Below, in pieces: positions 11,421 to 63,900 of a DNA stretch of 64,000 nt. The notes under the pieces were generated by a model that was given only the letters and a program-made list of their open reading frames with translations, was not told where the DNA came from and ran no database searches. The position numbers and the translations under genes are program-made. The number at the start of each line of letters is the position of its first letter. Position 1 is the stretch's first letter. The DNA is from a virus: positions 31,320-95,319 of IMG/VR virus record IMGVR_UViG_3300009105_000002, one strand, 5' to 3'.

Positions 11421-11448
11421 AGTTAACATAAGATACATTATAGGCGGT
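11421..11448 (-). other. dif-like XerC/XerD site with canonical XerD arm; left att of prophage 2
   Basis: Minus strand ACCGCCTATAA-TGTATC-TTATGTTAACT versus E. coli dif GGTGCGCATAA-TGTATA-TTATGTTAAAT (XerD arm 10/11, spacer 5/6). Confidence 0.85.
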
Positions 11449-11460
11449 TCGGACATACCA

Positions 11461-11489
11461 ATATTACCACAAGCCTTTATGTTTGTCAA
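11461..11489 (-). promoter_or_regulatory. Outward-facing sigma70-like promoter TTGACA-17-TAATAT (extended -10) pointing across the left att
   Basis: Minus strand TTGACA aacataaaggcttgtgg TAATAT. Confidence 0.65.
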
Positions 11490-11508
11490 GGGCAAGCTAA
11501 AAAAATCA

Positions 11509-11793
11509 CTACCTTCCTTTTAGATAATAACCCTGATGGGCGTCTTTTTCCTGACGATTACCGTTATTACCAAGCAACTCAAAGATCCTACCTCTCCATT
11601 TCTTGATTTTGCTCGATAATGGCAAATCAGGAAACTCAACCTGCAGCTCTGAATAGAAAAGCCTTGTAAGTTGGCTTACAGAAATGTGGTTGAATTTGCA
11701 GAACTCCACTACGTAGTCCTTTAGCCATACAGGTAGTGTTACAACAATCTTCACGGTTTCAGTCTCATAGCGACTCATTACCATTGGTATCAC
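11509..11793 (-). CDS. RHH/CopG-like DNA-binding protein
   Basis: KIVVTLPVWLKDYVVEFCKFNHISVSQLTR pattern; RBS AAAGGAG. Confidence 0.6.
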   Translation of the reverse strand: MIPMVMSRYETETVKIVVTLPVWLKDYVVEFCKFNHISVSQLTRLFYSELQVEFPDLPLSSKIKKWRGRIFELLGNNGNRQEKDAHQGYYLKGR

Positions 11794-11825
11794 TCTCCTT
11801 TTGGACTTGTGGCAGAGAATAAGTT

Positions 11826-11987
11826 TTATTTAAATCTTTTTCGATAAGCAAGAAAATTAGCAAGGGCCTTCCGCATGATGTCGCTTTCGTTCCAACCCAT
11901 TTCCTTTGCTAATTTCGCAACGCGCTTCTTTTGCTTTTTAGGAAGGCGAAATGTTATTTTGGAATGGTAGTTTGTGATGTCTGTCAT
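11826..11987 (-). CDS. RHH/CopG-like repressor (53 aa, near-leaderless)
   Basis: KITFRLPKKQKKRVAKLAKEMGWNESDIMRKALANFL. Confidence 0.75.
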   Translation of the reverse strand: MTDITNYHSKITFRLPKKQKKRVAKLAKEMGWNESDIMRKALANFLAYRKRFK

Positions 11988-11997
11988 ATGTAAGACA

Positions 11998-12062
11998 AGT
12001 TTATCATATAACCATAACTTTGTCAAGAAAATTGTTGCTATTGAAAAAAGGCATGGTATAAT
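11998..12062. promoter_or_regulatory. Divergent promoter pair
   Basis: Minus: TTGACA(12026-12021)-17-TAAACT(12003-11998). Plus: TTGCTA(12035-12040)-16-TATAAT(12057-12062). Both have an extended TG and lie a few nt from their start codons. Confidence 0.6.
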
Positions 12063-12067
12063 TAGAA

Positions 12068-12874
12068 ATGATGGGTAAATTTGGATTGTTATTACTCCTC
12101 TTGTTTTTTATAAGTGGTTGCGCTACGCTCAATTTTTCTGCCAATTATTATTCCCCTCCATCTAATTATAAAAGTGAAGTAAATAACTTGTGGACAGAAA
12201 TAAATTCTAACTTTTCTCTAAAATATAAATACACATTACGCATTGTTGATGACAATGAATGTCAAATGCCGGGTATCCCCGAAAACGACAATGGAGTTGT
12301 TAAATTGCCAGTTAATTATTTAAAATATGTATATCAAAATTATTACGATAATAGATTTACGATATTAACATGTTTAATTGTTCATGAATTATGCCATAGT
12401 GAATATGATTTACCTGACAACCCACCAGAAACTCATTTCCAGACTGATTTAAAAGCAATTTCTTTGTTATCCTGCTATACTACTATTTCAGCAGAAGATT
12501 ATTACAAAAGCATATATGTAGTAAAAAACTATTGGTTTGCCCGCAAGGGTATTGCCGGACATGCCTTTAATGTTGGTTGGAACGCTCTCCAAATAGTATC
12601 TTTAGTCAATGGAGGTTCTTATTGTTTTATGGATTGGTTTGCTACAGATTTAGATGTGCGCCTAAACCTATTATCAAGCAAATATGAAAAAATGCCACCT
12701 TGTTTTGCTATTACCAAGGATTCTAAAAATAATACTAATTCAGAAAAATCAGATTTTAAGTTTGCTTTTAAAAAGACAGACTACTATAAAATAGAAAGCT
12801 TAATTTATCCTGACTATACTGCGGGATTGGATGTATCTGAAAAAACAAGCATTAACATAGTGGGTGAAAAATAA
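12068..12874 (+). CDS. Lipoprotein with a zincin HExxH motif (moron)
   Basis: Lipobox FISG-C; LIVHELCH; AT-rich; opposite strand to the structural operon. Confidence 0.7.
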   Translation: MMGKFGLLLLLLFFISGCATLNFSANYYSPPSNYKSEVNNLWTEINSNFSLKYKYTLRIVDDNECQMPGIPENDNGVVKLPVNYLKYVYQNYYDNRFTILTCLIVHELCHSEYDLPDNPPETHFQTDLKAISLLSCYTTISAEDYYKSIYVVKNYWFARKGIAGHAFNVGWNALQIVSLVNGGSYCFMDWFATDLDVRLNLLSSKYEKMPPCFAITKDSKNNTNSEKSDFKFAFKKTDYYKIESLIYPDYTAGLDVSEKTSINIVGEK

Positions 12875-12877
12875 AAA

Positions 12878-15800
12878 CTAAGGGGAGATTTTAAGTTCCA
12901 TGTATAGGGCTTTAACGTCTTCTTCTATTGGTTTATCGGCATCTCTGTATTTCTTTCGTAAAACAGGGAGAATTTCTTTTCTTTCATCATCAGTAGCTAT
13001 CGAATAAACATTCAATCCTTCTTCAAGGGTGAGCCTTTTAAACGACTCCACGAAAGGAGTTAAGCGCGAATCTTTTGCAAGCTTCCTATAGCCGTCCCTC
13101 CCAAGCACCTCTATGGCCTCCTCTTTAATCTGCCATGGCCGAACCTCTCCTTTTCTGATTCTGTCTTTCTGCACCTTGCGATACAAGGTTTTTGCAAAAT
13201 CCGCTTCTGTGCGAGTAGTATCCGGCATCCTTTCAGAGATATAGCGATACATAAGTTTCTGCGCATTGCTCCGGGCAACATAGGAAGGCGCCGCGATTAT
13301 GCCGGTAATGGATATCAAAATATTTAACAGCGGATCAGGAGAGGTGAGTTGCATTCTTTCATAGTTCTTAAAAGAAAACGGTTTGGCGTAATTCTTTATG
13401 TGGATTGTCCTATCATAAAGTTGCTCCATTAAACCATCCTTTTCATCATAAAGCATGACATTATAAAAATCCTTATTCCTAAACTGCTCCATGGAAAGTC
13501 CGATTAGGGGGTGCCTTTTGCTGACAAATGTTTGTAAAGGCCTTGTAGCGTAGGCATATATATCCTTTGCGTAAGTAGGTAGAGATAACCGTTCGTCGGA
13601 TCCATCGGGGTTCTTTCTGCCAGTTCTTGGGAAGAAATAGTCCCTTATTTCTCTTGGGCGCTCCCCTGACAAGACATATGTTGCAATTGCCCCTATGATC
13701 ATATATACTATCATCGCGCCGATCCCATACGCCATTTTATGGCTTAATAGCTTATCTCCTGCTCTTATACGGGCTCCTGCAGTTCCTAAATCAACAGGTA
13801 TGCCCCCATATTCCCTCCAAGAGCCCAAATTCCACCCTACCGACCTCACAGAGGCCATCAAAACGTCTTTTAAGGTCTTATTCCAGAACAGGTTGTCATA
13901 TATCAGCGATCCCATGCGGTTATCCACGCTATCCCATACCTTTGTAAGCATATACCACAATTGCTCGTCGTTTATTTCTCCGGAGGCAGCACGCTCCATT
14001 TCGCTTTGTGCGAGTTTAGAAAATAGCCCTAATTTGCCGGTAGGAACATACCACTCCATAATCGGCTTGGCAGCGGTTTCTAAAATGGATCCAAATATAT
14101 TTAAAGGTAATTTCGCCATAGCAGCTATCTTCTCTATGCCCGATCCTACCAAAATATCCTTAAATGTCTTCTGTAACGCCTTGATTTGTTGGTTATAATA
14201 GAACACATCTATCCTATCTCTGCCTCCAGCTCTTATCATCGTATCTACTTTAAGCCTTAATTTCGGATCCTGTATAGTATCCATTTGTTGCTTATATGCC
14301 CTCTTAATCCGCGAGCCTTCCCATAAGACCTTAATAGGTGCTATTGGAAATGTAATCAAATCTTTCAATCCTTGATAGAGCTGTCCTTTTATAGTCAGTT
14401 TCCGAAGCCCTAATCCTACCGTAGAAGCCCAAACATCAGTAGTAACGTTTAAGCCGTGAAAAGCCGACAACGATAAATTGACTTGATTTAGTATGTTTCC
14501 AAACCCCCTCACTAAGTTATATCCTGTCGCTATGAGCTTATTGTCGCTTGTCCTTAATCCCGGCGAAAGGTGATTATTTATGATTAAAGCCACATCTTTA
14601 GGTGCGTAATAATGTCCCAACGTAGTGAACCCGGGTATCTTTATCTTGGCGTCAGCCTCCCCTAATACCAGAGAAGGTCTTATGTCAAGGATCGGCCTTA
14701 ATTGACCGTGCTCATTTAAAAACTTCGTGAATAATTCGTATATATCCGGCGCTAATTTCTTGAATTCCTCCGGCGCATGGATCAGCGCTTCCAGTAAAAC
14801 AGCCTCTTTTTCCCTGTATTTCCTTACATAGTTTTTATAACTCGCAGGTGCGTCTATACCTTTATACCTTGCATCGGCAAGCGCTCGCCATTGCTCGTTT
14901 ATATTTTTTCTCCACTCAATCGCCTCTTTGGTAGGCTTTACTTCTTCTGTTCCTACCTTCTTGCCCTTGACATAGGTGTGGACATAGGTGTCTTTATACG
15001 CCGTGAAAGTATTGAACAGGTTGAACCTATACCCTAAAATATGCCCTATTTCGTGGGCCAATACACTTTCCGGACTGGCAAATTTAGTCCTTACTGTTGA
15101 AGGCCATTGCGCATACCCCCAACGAGTGCCTCCTATGGTTACAAACCTCTTGGTATCTATTTCAAGGGATTTCGCCACATCCATAAGTTGTTCCACTAAA
15201 ATGCTGTCAAACGCCTCTTTCTTCGTTATCTCCGGAGGCATATAGACAGTAAAAGCGGTGTCGTTTATCTTTGCAAACCCTTGAGGTGGCGTCTTGCGAG
15301 AATATACAAACCGGATCATACCCCTATTTTTTAAATCCCTTATGACGTTTTGCGCCATTACATACCGGTCTACTTCGTGGAGTTTTAGCAATACAAGATC
15401 AACAGGATTATTGCTTACCGGTGTAAGCCCGGCCTCAAGGCCTTCTTTAATCGTCATATAAGTTCGTTCTTTAAGAAAACCCTTCGTGCCTTCCAACCTC
15501 TTTTTCCCCATAATCTTTGCTATCACGCCTTTTGCGTGCTCAAATCTCTCCCATATATGAGGAAAATAATTCTTATAAAAGTTTTGTAATTGCCCTTTCC
15601 CAAGATTTTGAACCGACTCTCGCCTTTCATCAAGGAGTTTTCTCATTACGTCGCTGAACGCTTGAAGTTTTTCATTTTCTTGAGGAAGGCCTTTTTCCAT
15701 ATTATCTATGAATTTATAACTATCCTCCTTGTTCATCCAAGTAAAGGCGCGGTGGGCTTTCTTTAACGCCTCAATAGCAGTAACGTCTTTATGTGCCAAC

Positions 15801-18800
15801 TTCGCTAATCCACCCCGCATAACTTGAGAGGTTACTTGCGCGAGATTTGATACCGACGCCGGAGATAGGATTTTAAGAAATTCCTTGATATAGTTTATTC
15901 TTTCAGGAGGAGGCATACCTGCCTCTACCTTTACTCTATCTGTTATTCTTACTTTTTCCTCTTTTGATTCGATCGTGCCGTATCCTTTTGGTGCTTTAGA
16001 GGCGACAGATGAACCGCCTGCGCCACCGCCTTTGACCGGTTTTTTATAAAAACCCACTGTAACTCCATAAATAAAATCTTTATCAGGTGTTTCTACGAAT
16101 TCCCCCCCGATCAGTTCTAACCCTTTTTCTTTAGCTTTTTGTTGCAATATTTTAGGCGTCATATCCTCAGCATAATTAACTTTCTCCTGTGCTTCATATT
16201 CTCCAAATCCTGTGCCTGCGTAGCATTTATCACACCACCCCTCGACATATACATTGCCCTCCCAATAATTTATCTTATTGGGATTATTTACATCAGGAAC
16301 TTTATCAGTAATTGCTTTAGCGCCCATCTCTTTACTTGGGGTTTCGGCGGCTTTCTCAACCCTCGGCTTAATATGTTCCTCTACTGCTTTTTCGGAAATC
16401 TCTACGCCCACACCCTTTCTGCCGGTAGCAACGGCTTGTTCTATCGTTACGCCGGAACCAGCGAAAGGATCAAAAACCACTTCGCCTTGTTCAGTAGTCA
16501 TTTCGATCATAGCTTTTAACATCTTGCGGGGTTTCTCGGTTTGATATCCCCTCGGCCTCACAAGTTTAAAGTTAAGATTTTTTATAGGTTTTGTGAGTTT
16601 CCCGCTAAAATTAAAGACAATTATTCCTTCCGGCTCGATTATATCGCCCCTCATATTACGAACTCTTGTAATTCCGTCTTTTTGTAATTTAGTATATTCA
16701 CCCTTACCGACGGCAATCATTTCTAATCTATTGAATACATCTGTATATCTCTGCATTTCCTTTAATCCGGATTTGGCTTGGGAATACATATAAATCAAAG
16801 GAGTATCTGATGTGCGCATTACTTGTCCAAGCCTTTCAACCATAGTATAAAATTGTTCAGGCGTTATATAGTCATACTTAATCCCTCTATTGCCTCCGAT
16901 AACTGCCGGTGTTTTATACGGGACGTCGAGGAATATCATATCAGCTTTAAATCCTTGATCTACGAGTTTCGGCACAATTTCAAGAGCATCGCCGGTATGT
17001 ATATAGGCAACATCTCGCCCTTGATTACGCAGAACATATACGCCCTTACCTACTCTTTTAAACGTGCCTTCCTTGGCGCCTACGCCTACGATCCTGCGAA
17101 CATTAGGTTCGAGGATTTCAGTTTCTTTGGCTATCTGCTTTATGGATTTAGGTTCTTCCTTGACGGCTTCTTTGACTTTTTCTTTTTGAACGATCTTGCC
17201 TTTTTCAAATACAAACTCTTTTTGTGTAGCGTCGGGCTTTTCTGCTTTTAATTCTTTTATTAAATCTTTATGCTCAACCTGTTCCTCGGTAGGTCGGAGA
17301 GGCGTCGGAGACATTTTGGCTTCCGGCGCAAGGGAGGGTTTAACAATCCGTGCCTTATCCTCATTTAAAACTATAATCTGATCTGCAAGAATTGCTTTGA
17401 AAAACTTATGGTCGGTTTCTTTTGCGATTTTCCGAACATTTTTAAAAACTACTGCGTCATACTTTTTAGCGAGTGCGTCAAAAAACTCTTTCTCTTGATG
17501 AAGTGCCGGATGTCCAACCTCTGCCTCGGCTTCCCTATATGCCTCAATACTGTCAACAACCTTTATCTTCGCCCCTTTATCTATCTCGTATTCAACAGAC
17601 TCAAGGTTTTTTATTACCTGTTTTGCGCCTACCTTAGCCATCCATTTCTGCTTATCGTAATCATAAAAGGTTTCAGCACCAGCTTTTTTCAACTCTTTTA
17701 AATGTTCTAATCCCCCTACTTCAACAATTTTATCTTCGCCTTCCCTAATAGAAGTTTTTCCCCATATCCTATCTTCTAATGAAAGATATATCCTGTCCCC
17801 AGCAAATCTACCAAGTTTTTCCTCCCCTCCTAATGATCCTGTGCCGTGAATAGGTTTCTTGGTAAAATCAAACCTTTCCCCTCGTTCCAATGCTTCCTTG
17901 CCTTCTTTTGTTGTGAAATGTTTAGCGCGGAGAGGCTTTTCTTCTGATTCACCCGGTTGCTTTTCTGTTACCCATTCGGGTTCTCGTTCTGTATCTTTCT
18001 TGCTTGCGCCTTCAGGATCCCCCTCTGCTTCCCCAGCTCGTAGAGTTTTTTCAATCTCGGATTCTGAGACTTTTTCTTTCCTGAGTTGCTCTCGTTCTTC
18101 TCTGATTCGTTCTTCATTTCCGTATCCCTCCGATAGATTTTTGTAAATCTGTTCTTGCTTTTCTGTTAATTTTTCACCCTTCTCTTTCTTGTCTATTATA
18201 TCAAGTGCTTTCTTTTTAGTCAAATTTGTCCAAGCATCTCTGAACCATTGCGGAAATGTAGATCCTTGACCAATCCATTCGCCTGTTTCTGTCTTTATGC
18301 GCTTGCCGGCTTCTCCCCTTTCTATCTCGGATTTCATACCCATAATTAAATCTTTTTCTTCTTGAGGGATTTTCGGTGCAGAAGGCTCCACTTCCTTAAC
18401 CGGCTTAAACTTCTTCTCGCCCTCTTTAGCCCACTCTTTTACCCATTCAGGGATTTCGGGCTTCTCTTTTGCAGATTTAACAATCTGATTATATTGTTTA
18501 TCAATCAATCCGCGTGCAAATAATTCATCTATAATCCTATCTTCACTATAACCTCCTTCGCCCTCCCCGAAGGCATCGCCCTTTAAAAATGTTACCATTC
18601 TCCATAGGGGGGAATCTGGATTTTTTAATTCTATAGCTACTAACTCCCGTATTTGTTCTCTTTGTGATTCCTGCAATTTGTTGAATTTGTGATGGCGTCT
18701 TTCGTGCTCAGCTATATATTCTTTATCAGCAATGTTTTCTTTATTTATTATTATAACATTATCATTAGGGCTTATATCTCCCAAGTCAAAATCTATAACC

Positions 18801-19942
18801 CCTGCTCTCCGAGCCATAATAAGAGAATTGCCATCTATTGCCATACCACCCACTGGTCTTAAATTTCCCATTTGTTTGATTTGTGCAGGAGATAATTCTA
18901 ATATTTTTTCCCCTCCCTCGCTTGATTTAATTTCAGGCTTAACCGGAGGTAGCGGAATAGGTTGAGGGGTAACAGCTTTGACGGCTATCTTGGGCGGCGT
19001 AACTTTCACACCTTTTGCGGCTTGATCTAAAAGTTGTTGAGAGGGAGGCCCAAGTTCTATCGGCTTAACTACCTGCTGAACACCGGGTATATTGGCTGTT
19101 GGGCCGGTTATGGTTTGTCCGGCACCTGCTGTATATTCCGGAGTCGTTTTTACAATCTTATACATTTCCCTTGAAAGTCGAGATATTTTATCAAAGGTTC
19201 TTGGATCAAGCGTCCGCTTTAATTCCATTATGGCTTTTCTATCAAGAACACCTTGTTTTATGGCTCTATTTATATTGTCACCAACCTCAAATGTAATTTC
19301 TTTTGCGTTCCGGATTTGCTTTACAGTTTCATATTTTGCGAATTTATAGGCAGAAGGGCTTACCGCCATAAGATATAGATATCCAGAGGGGGTTCCTACG
19401 GCGTTCCCTAAAACTGATAATGCTTTTGAGGCACCGGGATTATATCCTAATTCATTGAATAATTGCTCATAACTATAAGGGTGTCCTTCATCTGCTTCGG
19501 CTAATCCTTGTCGCCAAAACCCCCTTACTCTTATGGGTGTTAATGGCTTAAAAGTTTGTCCGGAAATAGCTTTCCCCCACTCCTGCATTACTCTCGCTGA
19601 TCCGCTTGACTCTCGGGTTTGTGCTGCACCAAGTTCTTTTAAAGGAAACGCTTTAGCCGGATAACTTAACCCGGCTGTCAATACTTCGTGCATACCCATT
19701 TTAGGTATATTTGTGCCTTTGTATTTCTCGGGGGAAATCATTGGCATTAAGACTTTATTAAGGGCTATTTTTGAGGTTGACTCTGCTGCTGGACGGAGTT
19801 TTTCCGGCACGGCTTCTTCTACCTTTTTGACAGAAGCCATCTGTTCTTCGCTTTCACGCAGATATTTTTTACGAGGATCTATGTCTTCCCTGACAGGTTG
19901 GAACCCAGCAAGCCCTACTTCTTGAACGGGGATAAAAGGCAT
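12878..19942 (-). CDS. 2354-aa polyvalent ejection protein (two HExxH zincin motifs, ART-like domain, HTH, beta-class amino-DNA methyltransferase)
   Basis: HERRH 18692-18706; HEIGH 15041-15055; DVPY 16916-16927 precedes FAGSG 16451-16465; last gene of the structural operon. Confidence 0.8.
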   Translation of the reverse strand: MPFIPVQEVGLAGFQPVREDIDPRKKYLRESEEQMASVKKVEEAVPEKLRPAAESTSKIALNKVLMPMISPEKYKGTNIPKMGMHEVLTAGLSYPAKAFPLKELGAAQTRESSGSARVMQEWGKAISGQTFKPLTPIRVRGFWRQGLAEADEGHPYSYEQLFNELGYNPGASKALSVLGNAVGTPSGYLYLMAVSPSAYKFAKYETVKQIRNAKEITFEVGDNINRAIKQGVLDRKAIMELKRTLDPRTFDKISRLSREMYKIVKTTPEYTAGAGQTITGPTANIPGVQQVVKPIELGPPSQQLLDQAAKGVKVTPPKIAVKAVTPQPIPLPPVKPEIKSSEGGEKILELSPAQIKQMGNLRPVGGMAIDGNSLIMARRAGVIDFDLGDISPNDNVIIINKENIADKEYIAEHERRHHKFNKLQESQREQIRELVAIELKNPDSPLWRMVTFLKGDAFGEGEGGYSEDRIIDELFARGLIDKQYNQIVKSAKEKPEIPEWVKEWAKEGEKKFKPVKEVEPSAPKIPQEEKDLIMGMKSEIERGEAGKRIKTETGEWIGQGSTFPQWFRDAWTNLTKKKALDIIDKKEKGEKLTEKQEQIYKNLSEGYGNEERIREEREQLRKEKVSESEIEKTLRAGEAEGDPEGASKKDTEREPEWVTEKQPGESEEKPLRAKHFTTKEGKEALERGERFDFTKKPIHGTGSLGGEEKLGRFAGDRIYLSLEDRIWGKTSIREGEDKIVEVGGLEHLKELKKAGAETFYDYDKQKWMAKVGAKQVIKNLESVEYEIDKGAKIKVVDSIEAYREAEAEVGHPALHQEKEFFDALAKKYDAVVFKNVRKIAKETDHKFFKAILADQIIVLNEDKARIVKPSLAPEAKMSPTPLRPTEEQVEHKDLIKELKAEKPDATQKEFVFEKGKIVQKEKVKEAVKEEPKSIKQIAKETEILEPNVRRIVGVGAKEGTFKRVGKGVYVLRNQGRDVAYIHTGDALEIVPKLVDQGFKADMIFLDVPYKTPAVIGGNRGIKYDYITPEQFYTMVERLGQVMRTSDTPLIYMYSQAKSGLKEMQRYTDVFNRLEMIAVGKGEYTKLQKDGITRVRNMRGDIIEPEGIIVFNFSGKLTKPIKNLNFKLVRPRGYQTEKPRKMLKAMIEMTTEQGEVVFDPFAGSGVTIEQAVATGRKGVGVEISEKAVEEHIKPRVEKAAETPSKEMGAKAITDKVPDVNNPNKINYWEGNVYVEGWCDKCYAGTGFGEYEAQEKVNYAEDMTPKILQQKAKEKGLELIGGEFVETPDKDFIYGVTVGFYKKPVKGGGAGGSSVASKAPKGYGTIESKEEKVRITDRVKVEAGMPPPERINYIKEFLKILSPASVSNLAQVTSQVMRGGLAKLAHKDVTAIEALKKAHRAFTWMNKEDSYKFIDNMEKGLPQENEKLQAFSDVMRKLLDERRESVQNLGKGQLQNFYKNYFPHIWERFEHAKGVIAKIMGKKRLEGTKGFLKERTYMTIKEGLEAGLTPVSNNPVDLVLLKLHEVDRYVMAQNVIRDLKNRGMIRFVYSRKTPPQGFAKINDTAFTVYMPPEITKKEAFDSILVEQLMDVAKSLEIDTKRFVTIGGTRWGYAQWPSTVRTKFASPESVLAHEIGHILGYRFNLFNTFTAYKDTYVHTYVKGKKVGTEEVKPTKEAIEWRKNINEQWRALADARYKGIDAPASYKNYVRKYREKEAVLLEALIHAPEEFKKLAPDIYELFTKFLNEHGQLRPILDIRPSLVLGEADAKIKIPGFTTLGHYYAPKDVALIINNHLSPGLRTSDNKLIATGYNLVRGFGNILNQVNLSLSAFHGLNVTTDVWASTVGLGLRKLTIKGQLYQGLKDLITFPIAPIKVLWEGSRIKRAYKQQMDTIQDPKLRLKVDTMIRAGGRDRIDVFYYNQQIKALQKTFKDILVGSGIEKIAAMAKLPLNIFGSILETAAKPIMEWYVPTGKLGLFSKLAQSEMERAASGEINDEQLWYMLTKVWDSVDNRMGSLIYDNLFWNKTLKDVLMASVRSVGWNLGSWREYGGIPVDLGTAGARIRAGDKLLSHKMAYGIGAMIVYMIIGAIATYVLSGERPREIRDYFFPRTGRKNPDGSDERLSLPTYAKDIYAYATRPLQTFVSKRHPLIGLSMEQFRNKDFYNVMLYDEKDGLMEQLYDRTIHIKNYAKPFSFKNYERMQLTSPDPLLNILISITGIIAAPSYVARSNAQKLMYRYISERMPDTTRTEADFAKTLYRKVQKDRIRKGEVRPWQIKEEAIEVLGRDGYRKLAKDSRLTPFVESFKRLTLEEGLNVYSIATDDERKEILPVLRKKYRDADKPIEEDVKALYMELKISP

Positions 19943-20641: not shown

Positions 20642-20653
20642 ATTTTACCTCTC

Positions 20654-25217: not shown

Positions 25218-25219
25218 TT

Positions 25220-40386: not shown

Positions 40387-40387
40387 A

Positions 40388-50406: not shown

Positions 50407-50408
50407 AA

Positions 50409-52799: not shown

Positions 52800-52941
52800 A
52801 ATTCAGCTTTTAATCTTTCTATCTCCTCGTTTAATTGCTTTTCCACTTCATCCCTTTCTTCCATAAGAAGACAAAGCGGACATTCGTTACCCTCGTAGCA
52901 AATTTCGTCGTGGCTATTATACCTACTTCCTGAACATAAAT

Positions 52942-55983: not shown

Positions 55984-56290
55984 GCATATCTCCCGTGCTC
56001 GAAAGTGCGCAAAGCATGGTTCCGTTTTTATATTCAAGATTTATTCCTCCAGTAGCAAGTCCAACTTCTTGTGTTCCTGCTCCTGCACAAAGATATTTCG
56101 TCTGTGGGTAATCCCAATACCAATGATATGGATAATGGTGATGGTCTTCTCGTATAACTTCCCTTACCACCTTTTCACCGAACATATCTTCCAACGCCTT
56201 TTTAAGCTTTCGTGCGTCAGTTACTGATAGGGTAATTTCTTTCTTCCCCAAGAGTATCTTGATTTCAGTAATTTCAACATTCTTTTCCAT
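55970..56290 (-). CDS. Hypothetical phage protein
   Basis: RBS GAGGAGG. Confidence 0.5.
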   Translation of the reverse strand: MEKNVEITEIKILLGKKEITLSVTDARKLKKALEDMFGEKVVREVIREDHHHYPYHWYWDYPQTKYLCAGAGTQEVGLATGGINLEYKNGTMLCALSSTGDMLEKN

Positions 56291-56326
56291 ATCTCCTCCT
56301 CGTTGGGCTATGGCGCAACGCCACAG

Positions 56327-57289
56327 CTAATCCGCCTCCACCATTTTTTTAACCATTTCTGCAAAGCCCATTTTCGGAAACCAATTTAATTCTTCGCCAG
56401 CTTTTGTCGCATCACCCTTAAGGCAATCTACTTCCGCAGGGCGCTTAAATTTATCGCTTATTCTGGTATGTTTTTCCCAATCTACAATTCCAATACATCT
56501 AAAAGCGACTTCTATAAAGTTTTCTACAGAATTAGCGGTTCCTGTTGCAAACACATAATCATCTGCAATATCTTGTTGTAGCGTTTTCCAAAAACCCTTC
56601 ACATAATCCGGCGCATAGCCCCAATCTCTTTTAGCGTCGATATTGCCAAGGACGAGTTGACTTTTTATTTCTCCGTGCGTAAGGAGCTCTCTTTTCATCT
56701 GAGCAACTGTCTTGCTAATTTTCCTTGAGACAAATTCTTCGCCACGCCTTTCTGACTCATGATTAAACGATATCCCACAACATATAAACAGGTTGTAAGC
56801 TTCTCTATAATTAACCATTACCCTATGAGCAAAACACTTCGCGCAGCCATAAGGTGAGCGGGGATAAAATGGGGTGGTTTCCTTTTGAGGCGTTTCTTTG
56901 ACCTTGCCGAACATTTCGCTTGAAGAAGCATGAAAGACCTTGCTATCTTTAGAAGACTGTCTTACTGCCTCTATGAGCCTCAAAGCACCCAAACCTGTAA
57001 CGTCGGCAGTATATACCGGCTCGTCAAAAGAGAATTTGACAAAACTCTGTGCTGCAAGATTATATACCTCGTCAGGCTTTATAAGGGCAAGGTTCTTACG
57101 CAAGCTTTCAGATCTCGTTATATCCCCGCTTACAAGCTCGATCCTATTAAGGATATGTCGGATCCTCCATAAAGAAGGCGTTGAGTGCCTTCTTATAAGT
57201 CCATACACCTTATAATCCTTTTCTACTAACAGATCTGCCAAATGTGATCCGTCCATACCAGTAATGCCTGTGATAAAAGCTATCTTCAT
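56327..57289 (-). CDS. gmd: GDP-mannose 4,6-dehydratase
   Basis: ITGITG.DGS.LA, PDEVYNLAAQS.V..SF, ASSSEMFG, PFYPRSPYG.AK, NHES.RRG..FV.RKI, RDWG.A.DYV, RPAEV. Confidence 0.95.
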   Translation of the reverse strand: MKIAFITGITGMDGSHLADLLVEKDYKVYGLIRRHSTPSLWRIRHILNRIELVSGDITRSESLRKNLALIKPDEVYNLAAQSFVKFSFDEPVYTADVTGLGALRLIEAVRQSSKDSKVFHASSSEMFGKVKETPQKETTPFYPRSPYGCAKCFAHRVMVNYREAYNLFICCGISFNHESERRGEEFVSRKISKTVAQMKRELLTHGEIKSQLVLGNIDAKRDWGYAPDYVKGFWKTLQQDIADDYVFATGTANSVENFIEVAFRCIGIVDWEKHTRISDKFKRPAEVDCLKGDATKAGEELNWFPKMGFAEMVKKMVEAD

Positions 57290-57733
57290 CTATTTACCTC
57301 CATTAAGTTCTTTAGCGATAGCAGATGCAATTGCTTCTTTACATTGTTCTATTTGTTCTCCGTCTAGAGTGATAATATGGCCTTCAAAAGAGGCGACACA
57401 TTGATAAGCTAATCGTTCCATTACCTTCTCATCAACCCTCGGTGCGGAGAATTTAAGAGTTCCAATAGCCTCTCTAGCCATATCAAAACCCTGTCTTATA
57501 AAAGAATTATACTTTTCATCAAGGCTATCTTTAGGGAAATTTGGTAAATCTTTTACTAATTTATATTTGGGTGCAGAGAATTTACTGACTATGGCTTGGG
57601 CAATATCCCTACTACCTAAACATCGTTCTATGCTGCATACATTTTCTAATATAATTTCTTCTACCTTCTCCACATCTAAACCCTGTCTACCACACTTATC
57701 GCATTTCCCTGTCTTCATAGTTACCTCACTCAC
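57290..57733 (-). CDS. Hypothetical phage protein with an internal KFSAP repeat
   Basis: ORF in operon. Confidence 0.45.
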   Translation of the reverse strand: MSEVTMKTGKCDKCGRQGLDVEKVEEIILENVCSIERCLGSRDIAQAIVSKFSAPKYKLVKDLPNFPKDSLDEKYNSFIRQGFDMAREAIGTLKFSAPRVDEKVMERLAYQCVASFEGHIITLDGEQIEQCKEAIASAIAKELNGGK

Positions 57734-58116
57734 TTTAAGGTCGGATTATTGGGCATTGCGTCCTCTTTATGTAAATCCGGATTACGTGAATCAAACGCCT
57801 TTGAATAGCCGACCAATAGTTTTGAGAAACTTGCCGCATTGGTTATCGTATGAATATCCATAGGTTCAACCACAAAAACTTCCCCCTCAACAAACCGCGT
57901 CGTAACGCTGGCAACCGCATTTACCCTCTTGATATAAACGTCAACCTCTCCGTCTAAAACATAAAAATACTCGTATTTGTTTTTATGGTAATGATTTCCC
58001 CACGGCTCTTTGTTCGCCATTTCTAAGATGTTGATTTGCTTGAGCCTTGTTGTAAAGAGTTGGAGGAGCCTGCCTCTTGAGTCTTCCCGAACAAGTTCAA
58101 TTCGTTTTCTGCGCAT
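57730..58116 (-). CDS. Cupin, NDP-sugar isomerase/epimerase-like (WxcM/FdtA/RmlC type)
   Basis: D.RG.L, GNHYH....EYFYV..G, P...H. Confidence 0.75.
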   Translation of the reverse strand: MRRKRIELVREDSRGRLLQLFTTRLKQINILEMANKEPWGNHYHKNKYEYFYVLDGEVDVYIKRVNAVASVTTRFVEGEVFVVEPMDIHTITNAASFSKLLVGYSKAFDSRNPDLHKEDAMPNNPTLK

Positions 58117-59651
58117 GATTTTATCTCCTTATCAAGTAAATTTAAGTCTTTTTGAATCATGTCCTTAAACACGTTTGATTGTAAAGTGTCTTCATAAAAC
58201 GGTGTTTTTGTTTGTTCGGCAAGTGTTCGGATAAGGTAGATTCTCGCCTCATACAGCTTCATTTGGGATTTCAGCATTAAAAGTTGATTGTAAAAAGCTA
58301 CCTCCTTATCAAAACCTCTTAATTCTCCTTCCCACCTTTTTCTGAAATGGCTTACCGGCGACTGAATTGCTTTTACAAGGTTATCCCGCGCCATACCCCA
58401 TTGCTTCTGTGCTCTTAAAACCGAATAGAGGTTGTAATAAGGGACATCATATTGTGGGTTGATCCTCGTAGCGACATTCCACATATCTACGGCGGATCCA
58501 GTTAACCCACACTTCATATAGGTTGCCCCGAGATTTGCTAATGCTACTTCGGATCGTGGGAAGTTCCATACGTTAGACTGGTAAAAAGTAATCTCGTTCT
58601 GATATGCCGGTAGTTGCTGCCACGTCCTCATTAGGTAAAGACCTATTACGAAAGCCAAGGCCACGGGATAAGGCGCGAGGAATTTCGCCATGATTATCCA
58701 TAGCCCTATGCTTGCGATATATACATACCTTTCCGCAACAAACTGGTGAATTGTGATCCAATTGAGGTAAATCCAAAGAAAAGCAAAATACCATACTATT
58801 CCAAACCTCACTACGCTATCACCGAAATAAAATAAGCACCCAAACCCTATTAGGAGCAAAACCCCGAGCCAAAAGCGATTATTCTCTTTTTCTAAAACAG
58901 GAGTATAATGAAAGCCCCACACATGGTAAAGCCCCATATTCGACGGAAAAAGCGCTAATTTTGTATAATAAAGGAGGCTTTTTGTCGCCACAATGATTTT
59001 TCGCCAACTCAATTTTGTTGAATTCCCCATACCTTGCGACTCAAAAGTATCCGTCCTTAAATTTATAGTATGCCTCACGATCTGAAAACCCATGGCCAAG
59101 GAAAGAAGTGCGCCTAAAATAATATACGAATAATGACCGAGCCATAATGTTATTACAAAAGTGGCAAGCATTGTAAAATTGCCTATGATCGCCAATGCAA
59201 GGAAGATAGCATAGAGAATTATGGAAATTCCCCAAGCGTCCGGAATGCCTAATGTCGGAATCTGCAAGGCCACTAAAGCCATAAAAAGCCCTACAATATA
59301 CCCTATTCCAGAAACCCAGCCTACTGTTTGAGCACCTAACGGCGTTACTGCGAACAAAAGACAGGTAATCCACGCCAAATGCTCTCCTATTATGTTCCTT
59401 AAGAAAAAATAAAGCATGACACAGGCGGCGTTCTTTAGGATCACGTTAAAACAATGATGATGTCGAGGGTTTTTATCGGCTACCTTAAAGCGCAGGTGTT
59501 TAAAATAATCGCCATAATAAGCATTTGCCGGCAGTTTACCGTCATACCGCACTATGCCTTCCATATCGTCAATTACAAAACCTCCCTTCCAAACAATATA
59601 CGAATAAGTCAGCCATACAAGCGCTGTAATAGATATGATATGCAAGATCAT
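58023..59651 (-). CDS. TMTC-like GT-C membrane glycosyltransferase with C-terminal TPRs
   Basis: FVIDD in the first loop, H..NV.L, LFA..P....V.W, AERY.Y..S.G, then TPR-like ALANLG..Y...G....A. Confidence 0.8.
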   Translation of the reverse strand: MILHIISITALVWLTYSYIVWKGGFVIDDMEGIVRYDGKLPANAYYGDYFKHLRFKVADKNPRHHHCFNVILKNAACVMLYFFLRNIIGEHLAWITCLLFAVTPLGAQTVGWVSGIGYIVGLFMALVALQIPTLGIPDAWGISIILYAIFLALAIIGNFTMLATFVITLWLGHYSYIILGALLSLAMGFQIVRHTINLRTDTFESQGMGNSTKLSWRKIIVATKSLLYYTKLALFPSNMGLYHVWGFHYTPVLEKENNRFWLGVLLLIGFGCLFYFGDSVVRFGIVWYFAFLWIYLNWITIHQFVAERYVYIASIGLWIIMAKFLAPYPVALAFVIGLYLMRTWQQLPAYQNEITFYQSNVWNFPRSEVALANLGATYMKCGLTGSAVDMWNVATRINPQYDVPYYNLYSVLRAQKQWGMARDNLVKAIQSPVSHFRKRWEGELRGFDKEVAFYNQLLMLKSQMKLYEARIYLIRTLAEQTKTPFYEDTLQSNVFKDMIQKDLNLLDKEIKSCAENELNLFGKTQEAGSSNSLQQGSSKSTS

Positions 59652-59839
59652 TTAACCCTTCCTTTCTTTAATGTTCGGCAGATAGGACACGGTGTCCACA
59701 TTCGTCCATGCCGATATTGTTTACCCCTCCCGCAATGGGAGCAGGTTTTTACAGTGCCTTCCAATTCCTCTGGATTATGTGCTTTTTTATAGCGTTTCAA
59801 TATTGATGGATCGTTAGTTCCTAATTCTCGAATACCCAC
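59648..59839 (-). CDS. Zinc-finger small protein
   Basis: CSHCG...CPIC. Confidence 0.5.
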   Translation of the reverse strand: MGIRELGTNDPSILKRYKKAHNPEELEGTVKTCSHCGRGKQYRHGRMWTPCPICRTLKKGRVK

Positions 59840-60020
59840 TTCATTCCTTTTTTGGCACTATCTCAACGCCATCTGTTATTCCCAAATCATTAAGCGCCTT
59901 TTCTAAATATGGCAACACACCTCTTTCACAATGAAGAACAATTAAGAGGTCGGATTTATCCCAACCCTCTTGTGTCCTTATCTCCTCAAGCATTTCTTTT
60001 AACTCTTTACTCATAGCATA

Positions 60021-60048
60021 TATATAGCTGTCGTTTTTTTTAAAAAAA
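60021..60048 (-). repeat. 28-bp inverted repeat, right copy
   Basis: Reverse complement of 39081-39108; ends 6 nt before an ATG at 60014. Confidence 0.9.
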
Positions 60049-60107
60049 GAGTTATTTACATAACTATTTATTTAAATACAAAACCCTTTAAACAGGTTTA
60101 ATACACT

Positions 60108-60494
60108 TTAAACATCTTTAAAGAGTTTGAGGATTTTGTGCTTAAATCTACGACATTTGTCGGTATTTAGCATTACATCCTTATCTGTAAGCCGGCAGAG
60201 TTTAAACCCCCTTCTTTTCATAAGACGCTCTCTCTTTCCTTCATGTTCCCTCCAGCCCTTATTTCTGTTTGCATGTGAAGATCCGTCAATTTCAATGGCG
60301 ATTTTATGTTTAAGTATGCAGAAATCTATTAAAATAATAAAGGTCGAGGAATAAAAGAGAGGGTATTGGAATATGTGCTTGATTTTGTGTTTCTTTAGGA
60401 AAGTTCGGAACTTTTTTTCGGAGAAGGTAGCTTTCCGCCGGTTTTGCTTTATGTATTTTTGGCAAGTTTTTCTTATCGTTTTACGAAAGTCCAT
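60108..60494 (-). CDS. DUF559/Vsr-like endonuclease
   Basis: T.SE, FQ, IDF, IEIDG..H, G....R. Confidence 0.8.
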   Translation of the reverse strand: MDFRKTIRKTCQKYIKQNRRKATFSEKKFRTFLKKHKIKHIFQYPLFYSSTFIILIDFCILKHKIAIEIDGSSHANRNKGWREHEGKRERLMKRRGFKLCRLTDKDVMLNTDKCRRFKHKILKLFKDV

Positions 60495-60793
60495 TTCTCA
60501 TAATCCTTTTCAAGGCTCAATTTAAACTTACGAGGCCCTTTCCACTCTATGCGCACCATGCAAGAATGTTCCATTTCAATTAGGATATTTTTAATATACT
60601 CCTCCGAGATTCGCAATGTAGTCGCAAAAGAAGTAACGTTTGAGATAACTTCTTTCCTATTCCAACCATATGTCAGCCGGATAATAAGCAAAGCAACTCT
60701 AAGCCAAGTAGGATTTGTTATGTATTTATAAATAGCTTGTAAAAGCTCATTCGCTATTTTAGTATAGCCGTGTTCGATCTGCGGACTTGCCAT
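60473..60793 (-). CDS. Lambda O-like replication protein, N-terminal wHTH only
   Basis: MASPQ.E.GYT.IANELL...RLTYGWN.K...KDYE.W. Confidence 0.8.
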   Translation of the reverse strand: MASPQIEHGYTKIANELLQAIYKYITNPTWLRVALLIIRLTYGWNRKEVISNVTSFATTLRISEEYIKNILIEMEHSCMVRIEWKGPRKFKLSLEKDYEKWTFVKR

Positions 60794-60794
60794 T

Positions 60795-61094
60795 TTAATT
60801 GCCCCTTATGTTGAATTTACTATCTGCGTCTATCAAGCCCTTACCTTTAACAACAAGGTTTTCAAGCCATATTTCTCTATTGTGGTTTAAGGCGTCAAAT
60901 ACAGGTTGCCACCTTACAAAATTCCCCATGCCCGGTTGGAGGAAAGTCCTCCAAGACTTGCCTTCTGTATCCTTGAAGAACATCCAATACATCAGTTTTT
61001 TGTTGTATTTGCTGATGTCTTTTTGTATCGAATAGGTTTTGCGGTTACATATTTGTTGACAGTGGGGACAATGGAAGTCATTTCTGCCTCGCAA
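60795..61094 (-). CDS. Hypothetical protein
   Basis: ORF between RecT-like and RepO-like genes; true start uncertain. Confidence 0.4.
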   Translation of the reverse strand: MRGRNDFHCPHCQQICNRKTYSIQKDISKYNKKLMYWMFFKDTEGKSWRTFLQPGMGNFVRWQPVFDALNHNREIWLENLVVKGKGLIDADSKFNIRGN

Positions 61095-62190
61095 GGTCTT
61101 GACATCTGCGACAGAAAATTTTATTCATAAAGTTCTTTTTAGAATACTCCACTACCCTTGGATCGTTTATTACGGTTCCACACTTGCCGTTTTGACACAC
61201 TATAACCTCCGGCGCCTTTTCCTCTGGAGGTAGCACTTCCGGCACTTCCTCCTTAGCGTTTAATTCAGCCATATAGTTTTGGCAATGTTCAGTAACTTGC
61301 GCCAGTTCCTTTTTGTTAAGGTCGCGCATCATCGCCTCTTGGTTGTTCTTAAAGTAGTTCATAAGTTCTTCGCCGGTTTTACAGGTGGAGGCACCTTCCC
61401 TATATTGATCAAGCTTGGTCTTGGGTGTGTTGCCGGTTACCAATTCGCTATATCGAGTAGCTATGGTTTCTTCTGCCACAAGCCTATCAGCGTCTATAAG
61501 TTGCTTTAATTCAGTATCTATGCTCCTCTTAAAGAGGTTGACTTTCTCCGGATCCGTTATCTTGGGGAGTTCTTCGCGAATTGTGAACATCAGTTCCGAA
61601 TAGTGCTCTTGATACTTCTCGCCTTGGAGCATTTCCTCTGACTTTTCAACAGTAACGGCTATTTCTTCATTGTCTAAATGAGCCTCGATTTCTTCTGGAG
61701 TGTAAATGCCTGCGATAACGTCGGGAGCAACTACTCTCGCACACATAGAGATAGCCCTTGCTCTGCACATATTCTTTGGATATTTCTTCCAATTATCCTT
61801 GTAGTTAAGGCCGGCATTTCTTGCGTCGTCCAGAGAAAAAGTAACCGTGTAAGGCGACATACCTTTTCTTTTCATCATAACCGTGCATTTCTTATCCGTA
61901 TCGTCAATTTTGATATCCTCAAGTTTCTCGCTTTTATAGAGGAGTGAAAGCATAAGTTGAGACGCCAAAGCAGTCTTGTTATCTACGATAAAGATATTCC
62001 GGATCGCCTCCATAGGGGGAAGCCCAAGTTCTCTGCCTGTCTCCATTACCAATACTGCCTGTTGCGCTGTCCGGATTTGTTTCGGCAGGAACCCTGTCTT
62101 GACCATTTGATCTGCCACCGCAAGATTTTTATTCCAATTTGTTGATAGGTCGTTCTCGCTCCTTACTGCCAATCCTCTTTCTCCGTTCAT
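61078..62190 (-). CDS. RecT/Red-beta-like ssDNA annealing protein
   Basis: G.ELGL.PM.A, A..AGL....W..YP..M..ARA, G.YT.EE; C-terminal zinc ribbon. Confidence 0.85.
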   Translation of the reverse strand: MNGERGLAVRSENDLSTNWNKNLAVADQMVKTGFLPKQIRTAQQAVLVMETGRELGLPPMEAIRNIFIVDNKTALASQLMLSLLYKSEKLEDIKIDDTDKKCTVMMKRKGMSPYTVTFSLDDARNAGLNYKDNWKKYPKNMCRARAISMCARVVAPDVIAGIYTPEEIEAHLDNEEIAVTVEKSEEMLQGEKYQEHYSELMFTIREELPKITDPEKVNLFKRSIDTELKQLIDADRLVAEETIATRYSELVTGNTPKTKLDQYREGASTCKTGEELMNYFKNNQEAMMRDLNKKELAQVTEHCQNYMAELNAKEEVPEVLPPEEKAPEVIVCQNGKCGTVINDPRVVEYSKKNFMNKIFCRRCQDLARQK

Positions 62191-62474
62191 AATTCAATCC
62201 TCCTGTTTAAGTCAAGAAGAAGGTGGTTTGTGTTTAAAATTCTTGTCTTTATTTCCTTCAATACGTCAGTTAATGTTGCACTTGGAGGGGGAGGGGGTTC
62301 TTTAGCAATAGCTTCCCCTGGTGTAGGAGGGGTGGGAGTCAACGCCGATTGAATTTTTCCTTCAAGCTGTGCTACAAAATTTGACTGCTGATCCAAGACA
62401 TTTAAAATCTGCTCAACTTCCTTAGTTACTTTACTTTGAGTCTTTTCCGTTGTTAGCCCTCCTGTTCCATTCAT
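62187..62474 (-). CDS. Hypothetical protein
   Basis: RBS AGGAGG; Pro-rich linker. Confidence 0.5.
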   Translation of the reverse strand: MNGTGGLTTEKTQSKVTKEVEQILNVLDQQSNFVAQLEGKIQSALTPTPPTPGEAIAKEPPPPPSATLTDVLKEIKTRILNTNHLLLDLNRRIEL

Positions 62475-62632
62475 AAAACCTCCTATTGTTTATTGAAACT
62501 TTTTTCAATTTCCAAAGCCTCGTCGCGTGATTTAGTTACTTCAACGCGAATCATTTTAAATATATTCTTATAAATTTGACGCGTCTCTTTGATTAAATCT
62601 ACGACTTCCAGCATCGCGGATTCTAAATTCTG

Positions 62633-62839
62633 CTACACATCTGCTTTTGATATTTTCGCCTTTCGAGGTTTTCCTTTTTTTTCGATACCAAGAAGGCGCC
62701 GGACAACTTGTATTTTCCAAGACGGGAGAGCAATGCCATAACTCTTGAAATGCTGTATTATGTCCTTTGGTTTCCTTTGCTCCCTAACCATACTTTCCAA
62801 TTGTTGCTGATGAACGTCAGATAAAATAAGCTTCGCCAT
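62633..62839 (-). CDS. Small basic putative DNA-binding protein
   Basis: RBS AGGAGG; HTH-like helices. Confidence 0.45.
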   Translation of the reverse strand: MAKLILSDVHQQQLESMVREQRKPKDIIQHFKSYGIALPSWKIQVVRRLLGIEKKGKPRKAKISKADV

Positions 62840-62849
62840 AATAACCTCC

Positions 62850-63476
62850 TTATATTCTTACCGAGAGTTCATCCTCTTGGTAGACTTCAATTCCATCTAT
62901 CTTAAGATCGTTAGACGCGACACCGTGGACATTTTTAGAGTGAGCCCTCAAAAGTCCGTTAATCTTCTTCTCGTCTAATATCCAATATTCCTTAGGGATT
63001 TTGCTTTCATCTGCCACTTTCCACTTCCATACTTTCTTGGTAAAAGACTTGCCAAGCCCTGAATCTATCGTTACCTTGGGCTTTTCGTTGACAGTAACGG
63101 GCACATTGGAAGTATCAGTCTCAAGAAAACTACTGGTAATCTCTCTTTTTTCCTTTTCTTCCTGTGCTTTCCGCGCCTGTTCTATCCTTACCCAACCGAG
63201 CAGTTTATCCTTAAGGATTGCCTCCACCTCTTTTAACGGCGAAGTAATTACCTTGAATAGATCGTTGATGGTCTTAACGTGATCCTGCAACGGCTTGACA
63301 AAAAACTTTCTCCTGTCTTCTGCTATCTTAAAATACTTCTTACACTCCAAGAGAAGATTATTGGCGTGTTTTGACTCTAACTCCGTTTTCACTTCCATTG
63401 ACTTTGCTTTGGTGATCAAGGCAGGAACATTTTTCTCAACAATTTGGACTTGTTGATCATTGCGAATATCTTCCAT
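62850..63476 (-). CDS. Coiled-coil early protein (Gp157/Gam-like position)
   Basis: E..RK....P......IN..F; C-terminal W.W.V.D..KIP.EY...I.G. Confidence 0.55.
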   Translation of the reverse strand: MEDIRNDQQVQIVEKNVPALITKAKSMEVKTELESKHANNLLLECKKYFKIAEDRRKFFVKPLQDHVKTINDLFKVITSPLKEVEAILKDKLLGWVRIEQARKAQEEKEKREITSSFLETDTSNVPVTVNEKPKVTIDSGLGKSFTKKVWKWKVADESKIPKEYWILDEKKINGLLRAHSKNVHGVASNDLKIDGIEVYQEDELSVRI

Positions 63477-63485
63477 AAACCCTCC

Positions 63486-63599
63486 TTAGTTTAAAAAGAA
63501 ACTTATCGTTATAATCACGGTCGCTAATAAAATACAAACACCCACAACTTTTGCATTAAACGGAGCTTCTTCTAAGCGTCTTTTGTAATAGTCGTCCAT
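63486..63599 (-). CDS. 37-aa single-TM peptide (absent from the ORF track)
   Basis: RBS AAAGGAGG; MDDYYKRRLEEAPFNAKVVGVCILLATVIITISFFLN. Confidence 0.55.
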   Translation of the reverse strand: MDDYYKRRLEEAPFNAKVVGVCILLATVIITISFFLN

Positions 63600-63731
63600 A
63601 AAACCTCCTTTTTAGCGTGGTGAATAAAAGGTGAAAAAATGGTGAGGCGAAAGGTGTCCGAGGAGCATTGGTGCTAACCAACGCTTGTGGGGGAAAGCCC
63701 CACCCTTCCGCCCCATGTTGAAGGCGGACAT

Positions 63732-63772
63732 AAAAAAAAAGAGAGGATAGAGTAAAATCTATCCTCTCTTTT
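63732..63772 (-). terminator. Intrinsic terminator, possibly bidirectional
   Basis: AAAAGAGAGGATAG/CTATCCTCTCTTTT stem; T9 follows on the minus strand. Confidence 0.7.
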
Positions 63773-63872
63773 ATTTGTGTAGGTGAATTTTTTTTTACCC
63801 TCAGACATATTTTCGTTACCTTCTATTCTCTTTATGTCCGAAGGTCTATTTAATTCTGGTGAATTATTTTAA

Positions 63873-63900
63873 GTATCTGTCAAGATACATTATAGGCGCT
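63873..63900 (-). other. dif-like site with degenerate XerD arm; right att of prophage 2
   Basis: Minus strand AGCGCCTATAA-TGTATC-TTGACAGATAC; same spacer and near-identical XerC arm as 11421-11448. Confidence 0.8.

Follow-up and report, generated by a model that had tools for sequence, protein, structure and literature searches.

How does a 52-kb tailed prophage that carries no recognisable integrase come to lie at dif, the chromosome-dimer resolution site at which the host's XerC and XerD recombinases act? The question is raised by a 64-kb stretch of DNA (hereafter the window; all coordinates refer to it unless stated otherwise), which forms the last 64 kb of the 95,319-bp IMG/VR record IMGVR_UViG_3300009105_000002 (record bases 31320-95319) and in which an initial annotation, made from the letters alone, had noticed a phage gene set bounded by a 17-bp direct repeat. 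This element, here named P2 (11449-63872; 52.4 kb, 74 open reading frames (ORFs), nearly all on the minus strand), has the content of a complete Caudoviricetes genome. On the sequence evidence assembled below, it appears to be a temperate tailed phage, complete and without a recombinase of known families, whose host is an uncultured Omnitrophota bacterium, and it was probably integrated at dif by host XerC/XerD.

A scan of the whole 95-kb record for dif-type 28-mers yielded three sites, A, B and C, in one common orientation and arrayed with two prophages in the order dead site A, prophage P1, full dif B, P2, dead site C. The direct repeat (11430-11446 and 63882-63898) lies, as had been claimed, inside 28-bp dif-like sites with the spacer TGTATC, namely site B (11421-11448, minus strand; ACCGCCTATAA-TGTATC-TTATGTTAACT) and site C (63873-63900, minus strand; AGCGCCTATAA-TGTATC-TTGACAGATAC), whose minus strand reads XerC arm, 6-bp spacer and XerD arm. 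Site A (contig 461-488; ACTTTTTAAAA-TGTATC-TTATGTTAACT) is outside the window, which makes P2 the second of two prophages arrayed in tandem; the other, P1 (contig 489-42739, between A and B; 42 kb), begins outside the window and occupies its first part with its right 11.4 kb (1-11420, plus strand). Site B combines a phage-type XerC arm with a canonical XerD arm, site C the host XerC arm with a degenerate XerD arm (3/11, the same count as in the initial annotation), and site A a perfect XerD arm with a degenerate XerC arm (6/11). Only B, then, is a complete dif among the three and presumably the functional dif of the array, while C is predicted to be inactive for FtsK-driven resolution. A repeat of 17 bp is by itself at chance level, two unrelated 17-mers also being repeated once in the 95-kb record; it is significant because its sequence is that of the Omnitrophota dif and because its copies sit exactly where the phage genes end. 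The 28-mer of site B recurs unchanged in nine Omnitrophota loci among the loci listed. Its XerC arm is unlike that of C at position 2 (the P2 arm matches the host arm at 10/11), which argues that the arm at B is phage-derived and not a duplicate of the host arm.

The XerC arm of C, the spacer and the XerD arm of A together reconstruct an attB identical (28/28) to the dif of one related genome (G002) and to the 28-mer of 16 loci among the loci listed. The expectation that attB would look like a normal dif was thus borne out, since it equals the single dif of related genomes at the GC-skew terminus. The P2 attP, as reconstructed from the B and C junctions, would consist of a good XerC arm, the spacer TGTATC (6/6) and a pseudo XerD arm (3/11), as in sites of the TLC-phi type. 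That of P1 would be its mirror image, in which the spacer joins a pseudo XerC arm to a good XerD arm.

We examined whether this sequence is indeed the dif of Omnitrophota by comparison with related genomes. Of the 25 GTDB species genomes in which its 25-nt core was found, nearly all are metagenome-assembled genomes (MAGs) or single amplified genomes (SAGs) of Candidatus Omnitrophota, and in five of five such genomes it occurred once per genome (allowing up to three mismatches). Two host contigs, of 176 kb and 224 kb, have it precisely where GC skew switches from plus to minus, at the cumulative maximum that a terminus is expected to show. The shorter pattern TATAA-N6-TTATGTTAA was present in 195 of 401 Omnitrophota genomes sampled, nearly always as a single copy and mostly with the spacer TATATC or TGTATC; second 16-mer matches in three genomes (G406, G414, G311) were dismissed as other dif variants or chance. 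The machinery is in place as well: all five host genomes have a match above the family cut-off to the XerD model and an FtsK with the gamma domain, and four of the five have a second Xer-type match (327-340 bits). No tRNA, tmRNA or Rfam family was detected at the dif site, and the idea of a tRNA, tmRNA or other RNA gene as the target was rejected.

The outer flanks of the array agree with this assignment. The 100 bases past site C (63901-64000, where the record ends) align with the XerC-side module of the Omnitrophota dif (75/95 identities to locus L027), and no phage content continues beyond 63900, a continuation that would have spoken against the boundaries first proposed. Past site A, the 460 bases align with the XerD-side module and with additional host sequence (180/241 to locus L021), and both flank types are contiguous around a single dif in related genomes and in two metagenome contigs. 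Judging by these alignments, host DNA makes up the outer flanks of A and C, phage DNA lies on the inner side, and the evidence from related species points to insertion at the host dif.

Alignment of 23 host dif flanks with sites A and B revealed that a conserved non-coding module surrounds the Omnitrophota dif phylum-wide, with dyads and a DnaA-box-like TGTGGATAAC fixed 76 bp from the arm on the XerD side and a conserved 40-nt element on the XerC side. P1 carries a copy of the XerD-side module next to site B (11336-11420, minus strand), with a palindrome and with TGTGGATAAC on the plus strand at 11344-11353, again 76 bp from the arm. This copy has diverged from the host module (about 70% identity over about 100 bp; the corresponding flank on the A side is L001:376-460), and its presence in a phage hints that the module matters for the reaction.

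In both prophages, genes and GC skew run towards site B, just as the replichores of the host run towards dif. This polarity is consistent with B being the working dif, in a measure that is confounded by general strand bias. Words resembling the FtsK-orienting polar sequences (KOPS) also point towards B in both prophages, which is weak evidence given the confounding general purine skew of the host.

We next consider what the phages themselves might contribute to the reaction. Six-frame searches of the whole 95-kb record with hidden Markov models (HMMs) for Phage_integrase (PF00589), Resolvase (PF00239), large-serine Recombinase (PF07508) and rve (PF00665) gave no tyrosine or serine recombinase match and no DDE transposase match, and per-ORF scans against Pfam and PHROG, which took in the P2 ORFs from about 120 aa up, most of the smaller P2 ORFs and about 20 P1 ORFs (at the ends and in the packaging module), detected no recombinase either. 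The statement in the initial annotation that no ORF between the repeats looks like a recombinase is upheld by these searches, and P1, which had been named as a possible source in trans, has no recombinase of known families. As far as known families go, neither phage would thus appear to encode its own integrase or transposase. The ORFs nearest the junctions code for a lipoprotein, ribbon-helix-helix (RHH) proteins, small orphans and the exonuclease and RecT. The Xer activation factor XafT (DUF3653, PF12375) gave no six-frame match in the record at E ≤0.1, and Pfam searches at E values up to 5 with four small proteins near the att sites found no XafT-like domain, so any activator would be of another kind.

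Taken together, these sequence comparisons favour an XerCD-type integration of P2, which we hold to be likely. Host XerC/XerD would synapse the P2 attP with the chromosomal dif, and strands would be exchanged in or beside the shared 6-bp spacer. For P2, the products would be dead site C, with the host XerC arm and the phage pseudo-arm, and full dif B, with the phage XerC arm and the XerD arm from the host side. P1 would represent the mirror-image solution on the other side of the same dif, and the array order given above would result whichever phage came first. With a live B between dead outer sites, dimer resolution at B could proceed without excising either phage. We infer the catalysis by XerCD, as well as the arm cleaved first and the escape from FtsK control.

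The junctions that such a reaction would leave in free phage and in uninfected hosts were sought in sequence collections. The exact attP pattern had no match in IMG/VR, where half-site patterns matched just one other record, and a degenerate attP/attB pattern retrieved from JGI metagenome contigs only two empty dif sites, both of other Omnitrophota species. A word search of the Sequence Read Archive (SRA) pointed to two marine runs with 5-6% of the words, and over window positions 1-20000 these contributed scattered identical contigs of 150-250 nt, at a depth of about 2 and across both prophages, among which no joint and no junction was present; they are neutral with regard to excision. Two SRA-derived (Logan) contigs begin exactly at a 30-nt dif word and extend into the host-type XerC-side flank. 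Contigs that start or stop exactly at dif were also seen among loci L009, L019, L020 and L027 and in one MAG (G407, contigs C7 and C52). A dif word of 28-30 nt is common to several species and probably also to occupied and empty sites, so that contigs are broken there in assembly, and under-reporting of elements at dif is likely.

Several observations weigh against integration of P2 by host XerC/XerD. Searches of IMG/VR, JGI metagenome contigs and the SRA turned up neither the attP junction nor an empty attB belonging to the same population, which is why the circular form and the attP are put forward here as reconstructions. All host evidence comes from related species, the array's own flanks being no longer than 460 and 100 bases; a known Xer activation factor (DUF3653) is missing; and P2 holds a second full dif-like site (38794-38821), which is not the one used in insertion. 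Moreover, an exonuclease and RecT are the first genes by the outer att sites in both phages, and negative HMM searches leave room for a recombinase of unknown family. Were each phage to encode an unrecognised enzyme of this kind that targets dif, many family-less ORFs in P2 and P1 could be considered, among them a 244-aa P1 ORF (8983-9717) with a poor model and no informative neighbours, and lack of an HMM match does not prove absence. We nevertheless regard this as unlikely, as the enzyme would be needed separately in two almost unrelated phages, and none of the proteins common to both (a hydrolase, a tail domain, a zinc ribbon and a small helix-turn-helix (HTH) protein) is of recombinase size. 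The unannotated P2 ORFs above 150 aa are mostly in the virion and glycan modules, and the orphans of the early region are all below 150 aa. Identity, furthermore, ends exactly at the limits of Xer half-sites (17 bp, an arm with the spacer), a pattern that known IMEXs (integrative mobile elements exploiting Xer) share.

The position of the exonuclease and RecT genes, and the identity of roughly 70% over about 100 bp between P1 and the host dif flank, could be taken to mean that these proteins drove homologous recombination through short dif-like homology, with no Xer catalysis. This is quite improbable: perfect identity extends over 17 bp (P2) and 21 bp (P1), much too short for an efficient RecT substrate, the homologous stretch is exactly one dif half-site, a degenerate arm at the exact Xer spacing is not accounted for by homologous recombination, and exonuclease and RecT beside attP are the usual lambdoid early-left layout, which needs no special cause. 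A recombinase acting in trans from elsewhere in the host, or phage integrases lost after insertion, would find some favour in the up to three tyrosine recombinases that related MAGs have beyond the two Xer-type matches, and in the integrase-bearing relatives of P2. We think this very improbable given that the att core is dif, for which XerC/XerD are the resident enzymes, that loss would have to be independent in P1, P2 and a third phage fragment, and that the integrase of P2 relatives is located upstream of TerL and not at the junctions used by P2. There is, lastly, the chance that, in a metagenome-derived record, the assembler used dif-like words to link the genomes of two free phages with host fragments, dif being a branch point of assembly graphs at which Logan contigs and many MAG contigs break. 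Such an artefact is very improbable, since the exact shared words of only 17-21 bp are below the k-mers of final contigs, all three junctions would have to be chimeric in the sole order and orientation that give the half-site logic and host outer flanks, and an identical TerL is recorded on five contigs.

The IMEXs described in the literature that we searched are small elements, namely inoviruses, double jelly-roll (DJR) or corticovirus-like phages, a gokushovirus, TLC-phi, the gonococcal genetic island (GGI) and Legionella LME-1, and tailed phages have been taken to need their own integrase or transposase. The list of known IMEXs in the initial annotation, confined to filamentous phages, satellites and islands, was out of date: IMEXs have since been reported or suspected among microviruses and among dsDNA phages of the non-tailed DJR/corticovirus-like kind (PMC12715192; bioRxiv 10.64898/2026.02.19.706829), and the IMEX habit has been presented as one of non-tailed phages, in explicit contrast to tailed phages that encode an integrase (PMC12715192). 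Its remark that a tailed IMEX would be an uncharacterised case still holds for the PMC and bioRxiv literature searched, in which no tailed-phage IMEX was found, with incomplete coverage that makes an earlier description possible. P1 and P2 would be tailed dsDNA phage IMEXs of a candidate phylum, stacked as mirror-image half-site elements.

P2 is like the TLC-phi/GGI class in having no recombinase of its own, a degenerate XerD arm and a live dif together with a dead site. The TLC-phi site keeps a good XerC arm without a proper XerD arm. The dif-like site of GGI is similar, its XerC arm being good and its XerD arm degenerate; GGI has a functional dif on one side and a dead dif-like site on the other, an arrangement that blocks FtsK-dependent excision (PMC6744903). 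In contrast to both, P2 is a 52-kb tailed dsDNA phage and not a small satellite or a conjugative island, its host belongs to Omnitrophota and not to Proteobacteria, it has no DUF3653/XafT domain, and its use of Xer is inferred here. Vibrio DJR prophages, like P1 and P2, are dsDNA, integrase-less and located at dif, whereas they are non-tailed, much smaller than P1 and P2 and have rstR and xafT as terminal genes, neither of which is present in the HK97-fold tailed phages P1 and P2 (42 and 52 kb). The attPs of these PM2/corticovirus-like IMEXs are full-length, left-armed or right-armed 17-bp mimics, and tandem IMEX arrays are common among them (PMC12715192). P1 and P2, in turn, constitute a right-armed and left-armed tandem pair. 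CTX-phi, VGJ-phi, other filamentous IMEXs and the E. coli gokushovirus prophages also use host XerCD at dif, regenerate dif and form arrays, but are ssDNA phages, unlike P2; the attP of CTX-phi is folded ssDNA. Those of the VGJ type keep both arms and have a partly mismatched spacer, and are resembled by the internal P2 site at 38794-38821, not by the site used for insertion.

If integration by host XerC/XerD is correct, it extends Xer exploitation to the dominant phage class, with tailed phages of 42 and 52 kb, and provides a first handle on lysogeny and on dif/Xer in Omnitrophota, a phylum of ultra-small and largely uncultured bacteria. Mirror-image half-sites around one live dif would be a natural example of stacking at dif with dimer resolution unharmed, and the missing XafT points to an undiscovered mode of Xer activation. 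Prophage-finding software would overlook such elements, or set their limits wrongly, wherever it demands an integrase or relies on att sites of the tRNA type.

The internal site of P2 (38794-38821, plus strand; GGGATATATAA-TATTTG-TTATGTTAACT) is a full dif-like 28-mer that runs opposite to the att sites and has another spacer. P2 belongs to a family of 48-58-kb phages in IMG/VR with TerL about 50% identical and 22-27 proteins in common, including the glycan cluster described below. Two of 16 family records have a tyrosine integrase 1.5-3 kb upstream of TerL. Three integrase-less genomes, G426 (closed, with direct terminal repeats), G433 and P2, have in that integrase region an exact ATAA-N6-TTATGTTAA 28-mer, and these are the only exact matches in 438 kb, against about 0.09 expected. 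The relatives G421 and G423 carry an integrase where P2, G426 and G433 have a syntenic dif-like site. The integrase-bearing family members in the records behind L077 and L081 are of similar size to P2 and have 25 proteins in common with it, including the virion and glycan/radical S-adenosylmethionine (radical-SAM) modules, and differ in having the tyrosine integrase 1.5-3 kb upstream of TerL, where P2 has the dif-like site, and in lacking the different early module with the used attP that is found in P2. This early module is also absent from the gene set shared by G426/G433-type relatives. Spacers of the internal sites in P2, G426 and G433 are unlike the common host spacers, and these sites could be VGJ-like attPs, phage dimer-resolution sites or relics. 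G/C-rich inverted runs surround the P2 site (38641-38664 and 38955-38970), assemblies of several relatives break near it, some of them in poly-C runs, and the phage genome ends may be close to this region.

Recurrence at dif was suggested by a third phage fragment, L075 (IMGVR_UViG_3300009105_000046; 16.6 kb), which ends in a full Omnitrophota dif (16527-16554), carries tail fibre and Sak4-like annealing protein genes and has no PF00589 match over its 16.6 kb. On the XerD side its flank shares 93% identity with a host genome, and 40 nt on the XerC side are only about 75% identical. Searches with TerL Pfam families detected none in the 25 dif-bearing MAGs, hence no further examples in those genomes, and the P2 capsid relatives in three of 401 Omnitrophota genomes are too distant, and on contigs other than that of dif, to be informative.

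A broader proposal, which we offer tentatively as one joint reading, is that Xer hijacking is regular among large tailed phages of Omnitrophota, with at least three unrelated phages at dif; that the SU10-like family of about 50 kb has swapped its integrase and attP for a dif mimic; that the conserved module beside the XerD arm, which P1 copies, serves the Xer reaction as accessory sequence; and that an activator other than XafT frees XerCD from FtsK control, the zinc ribbon and small HTH of P1 and P2 being possible candidates. The two phages have otherwise little in common: of the 63 proteins of P1, only five are similar to any in P2, which has 74. Besides the hydrolase, these include a concanavalin A (ConA)-like tail domain, 61% identical, whose sharing suggests a common host for P1 and P2; a four-cysteine zinc ribbon of 63-68 aa, 70% identical (P2, 59648-59839, minus strand; P1, L001:8567-8773); and the small HTH protein (P2 orf68, 62633-62839, minus strand; P1, L001:9492-9920). 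The zinc ribbon and the HTH protein are candidates for a common host-directed or Xer-related function. P1 further has genes for an exonuclease, RecT, a ParB-like protein, Rep, TerL and portal, assigned with PHROGs, and its last gene encodes an XRE-type HTH protein (10485-10943).

As to gene content, P2 is, judging from the presence of TerL, portal, HK97-type head and tail proteins, a tailed phage (Caudoviricetes). The virion and packaging module (19943-37897, minus strand) includes tail and fibre proteins (25220-28082; tail fibre and baseplate PHROGs), a depolymerase-like protein (28945-29928), an HK97-type major head protein (30037-30957; PHROGs 371 and 4523), a portal of the SU10 type (33238-35466; PF23899) and TerL (36006-37466; PF03237). 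The portal match to the SU10 family makes the podovirus-like nature claimed in the initial annotation plausible, short of proving it. Megablast of 24 kb of P2 against GenBank phages gave no match, and no related loci were obtained with RecT alone as query.

At the site B end, a sigma-70-like promoter match (11461-11489, minus strand; TTGACA-17-TAATAT with TG, by consensus only) points out of P2 across B and is followed by genes for two RHH-type proteins on the minus strand, at 11509-11793 (by sequence pattern only) and 11826-12026 (PF01402 RHH_1, E 1.4e-6; Arc/CopG PHROGs), which, lying beside the att site, are candidate lysogeny regulators. A moron-like lipoprotein with an HExxH motif (12068-12874, plus strand) had no Pfam or PHROG match and is not a recombinase. 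The adjoining 2354-aa protein (12878-19942, minus strand) has, as its single recognisable domain, an N6/N4 DNA methyltransferase in mid-protein (PF01555, E 6e-16; phrog_67), and is reminiscent of very large virion-packaged anti-restriction proteins such as DarB of a phage also named P1. At the other end, the early module next to site C (59648-63476, minus strand) has no integrase or excisionase; it encodes, besides the zinc ribbon and orf68, an HNH/DUF559 protein, a RepO-like protein (60473-60793), RecT (61078-62190) and an exonuclease-family protein (62850-63476). Between C and these genes lies a terminator-like hairpin (63737-63772, minus strand; 15-bp stem and T run, by consensus match only). 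The idea that integration severs the early operon from the outward promoter at 11461-11489 is weakened by this strong terminator-like hairpin, and a promoter-like site by B with a hairpin inside C argues against a simple read-through switch.

The remaining large block of P2 is an 18-kb glycan/radical-SAM cluster (41660-59651, minus strand), with genes for GT2/GT-C glycosyltransferases, four radical-SAM enzymes (two B12-binding, one SPASM), a methyltransferase and a GDP-mannose 4,6-dehydratase. P2 also encodes a Cpn10/GroES-like co-chaperonin (53906-54181; PF00166, E 2.5e-9). Of the nine related IMG/VR records that were examined, eight keep the cluster (the 13.7-kb fragment G420 and seven records of about 50 kb), which is therefore a family trait, not a recent moron.

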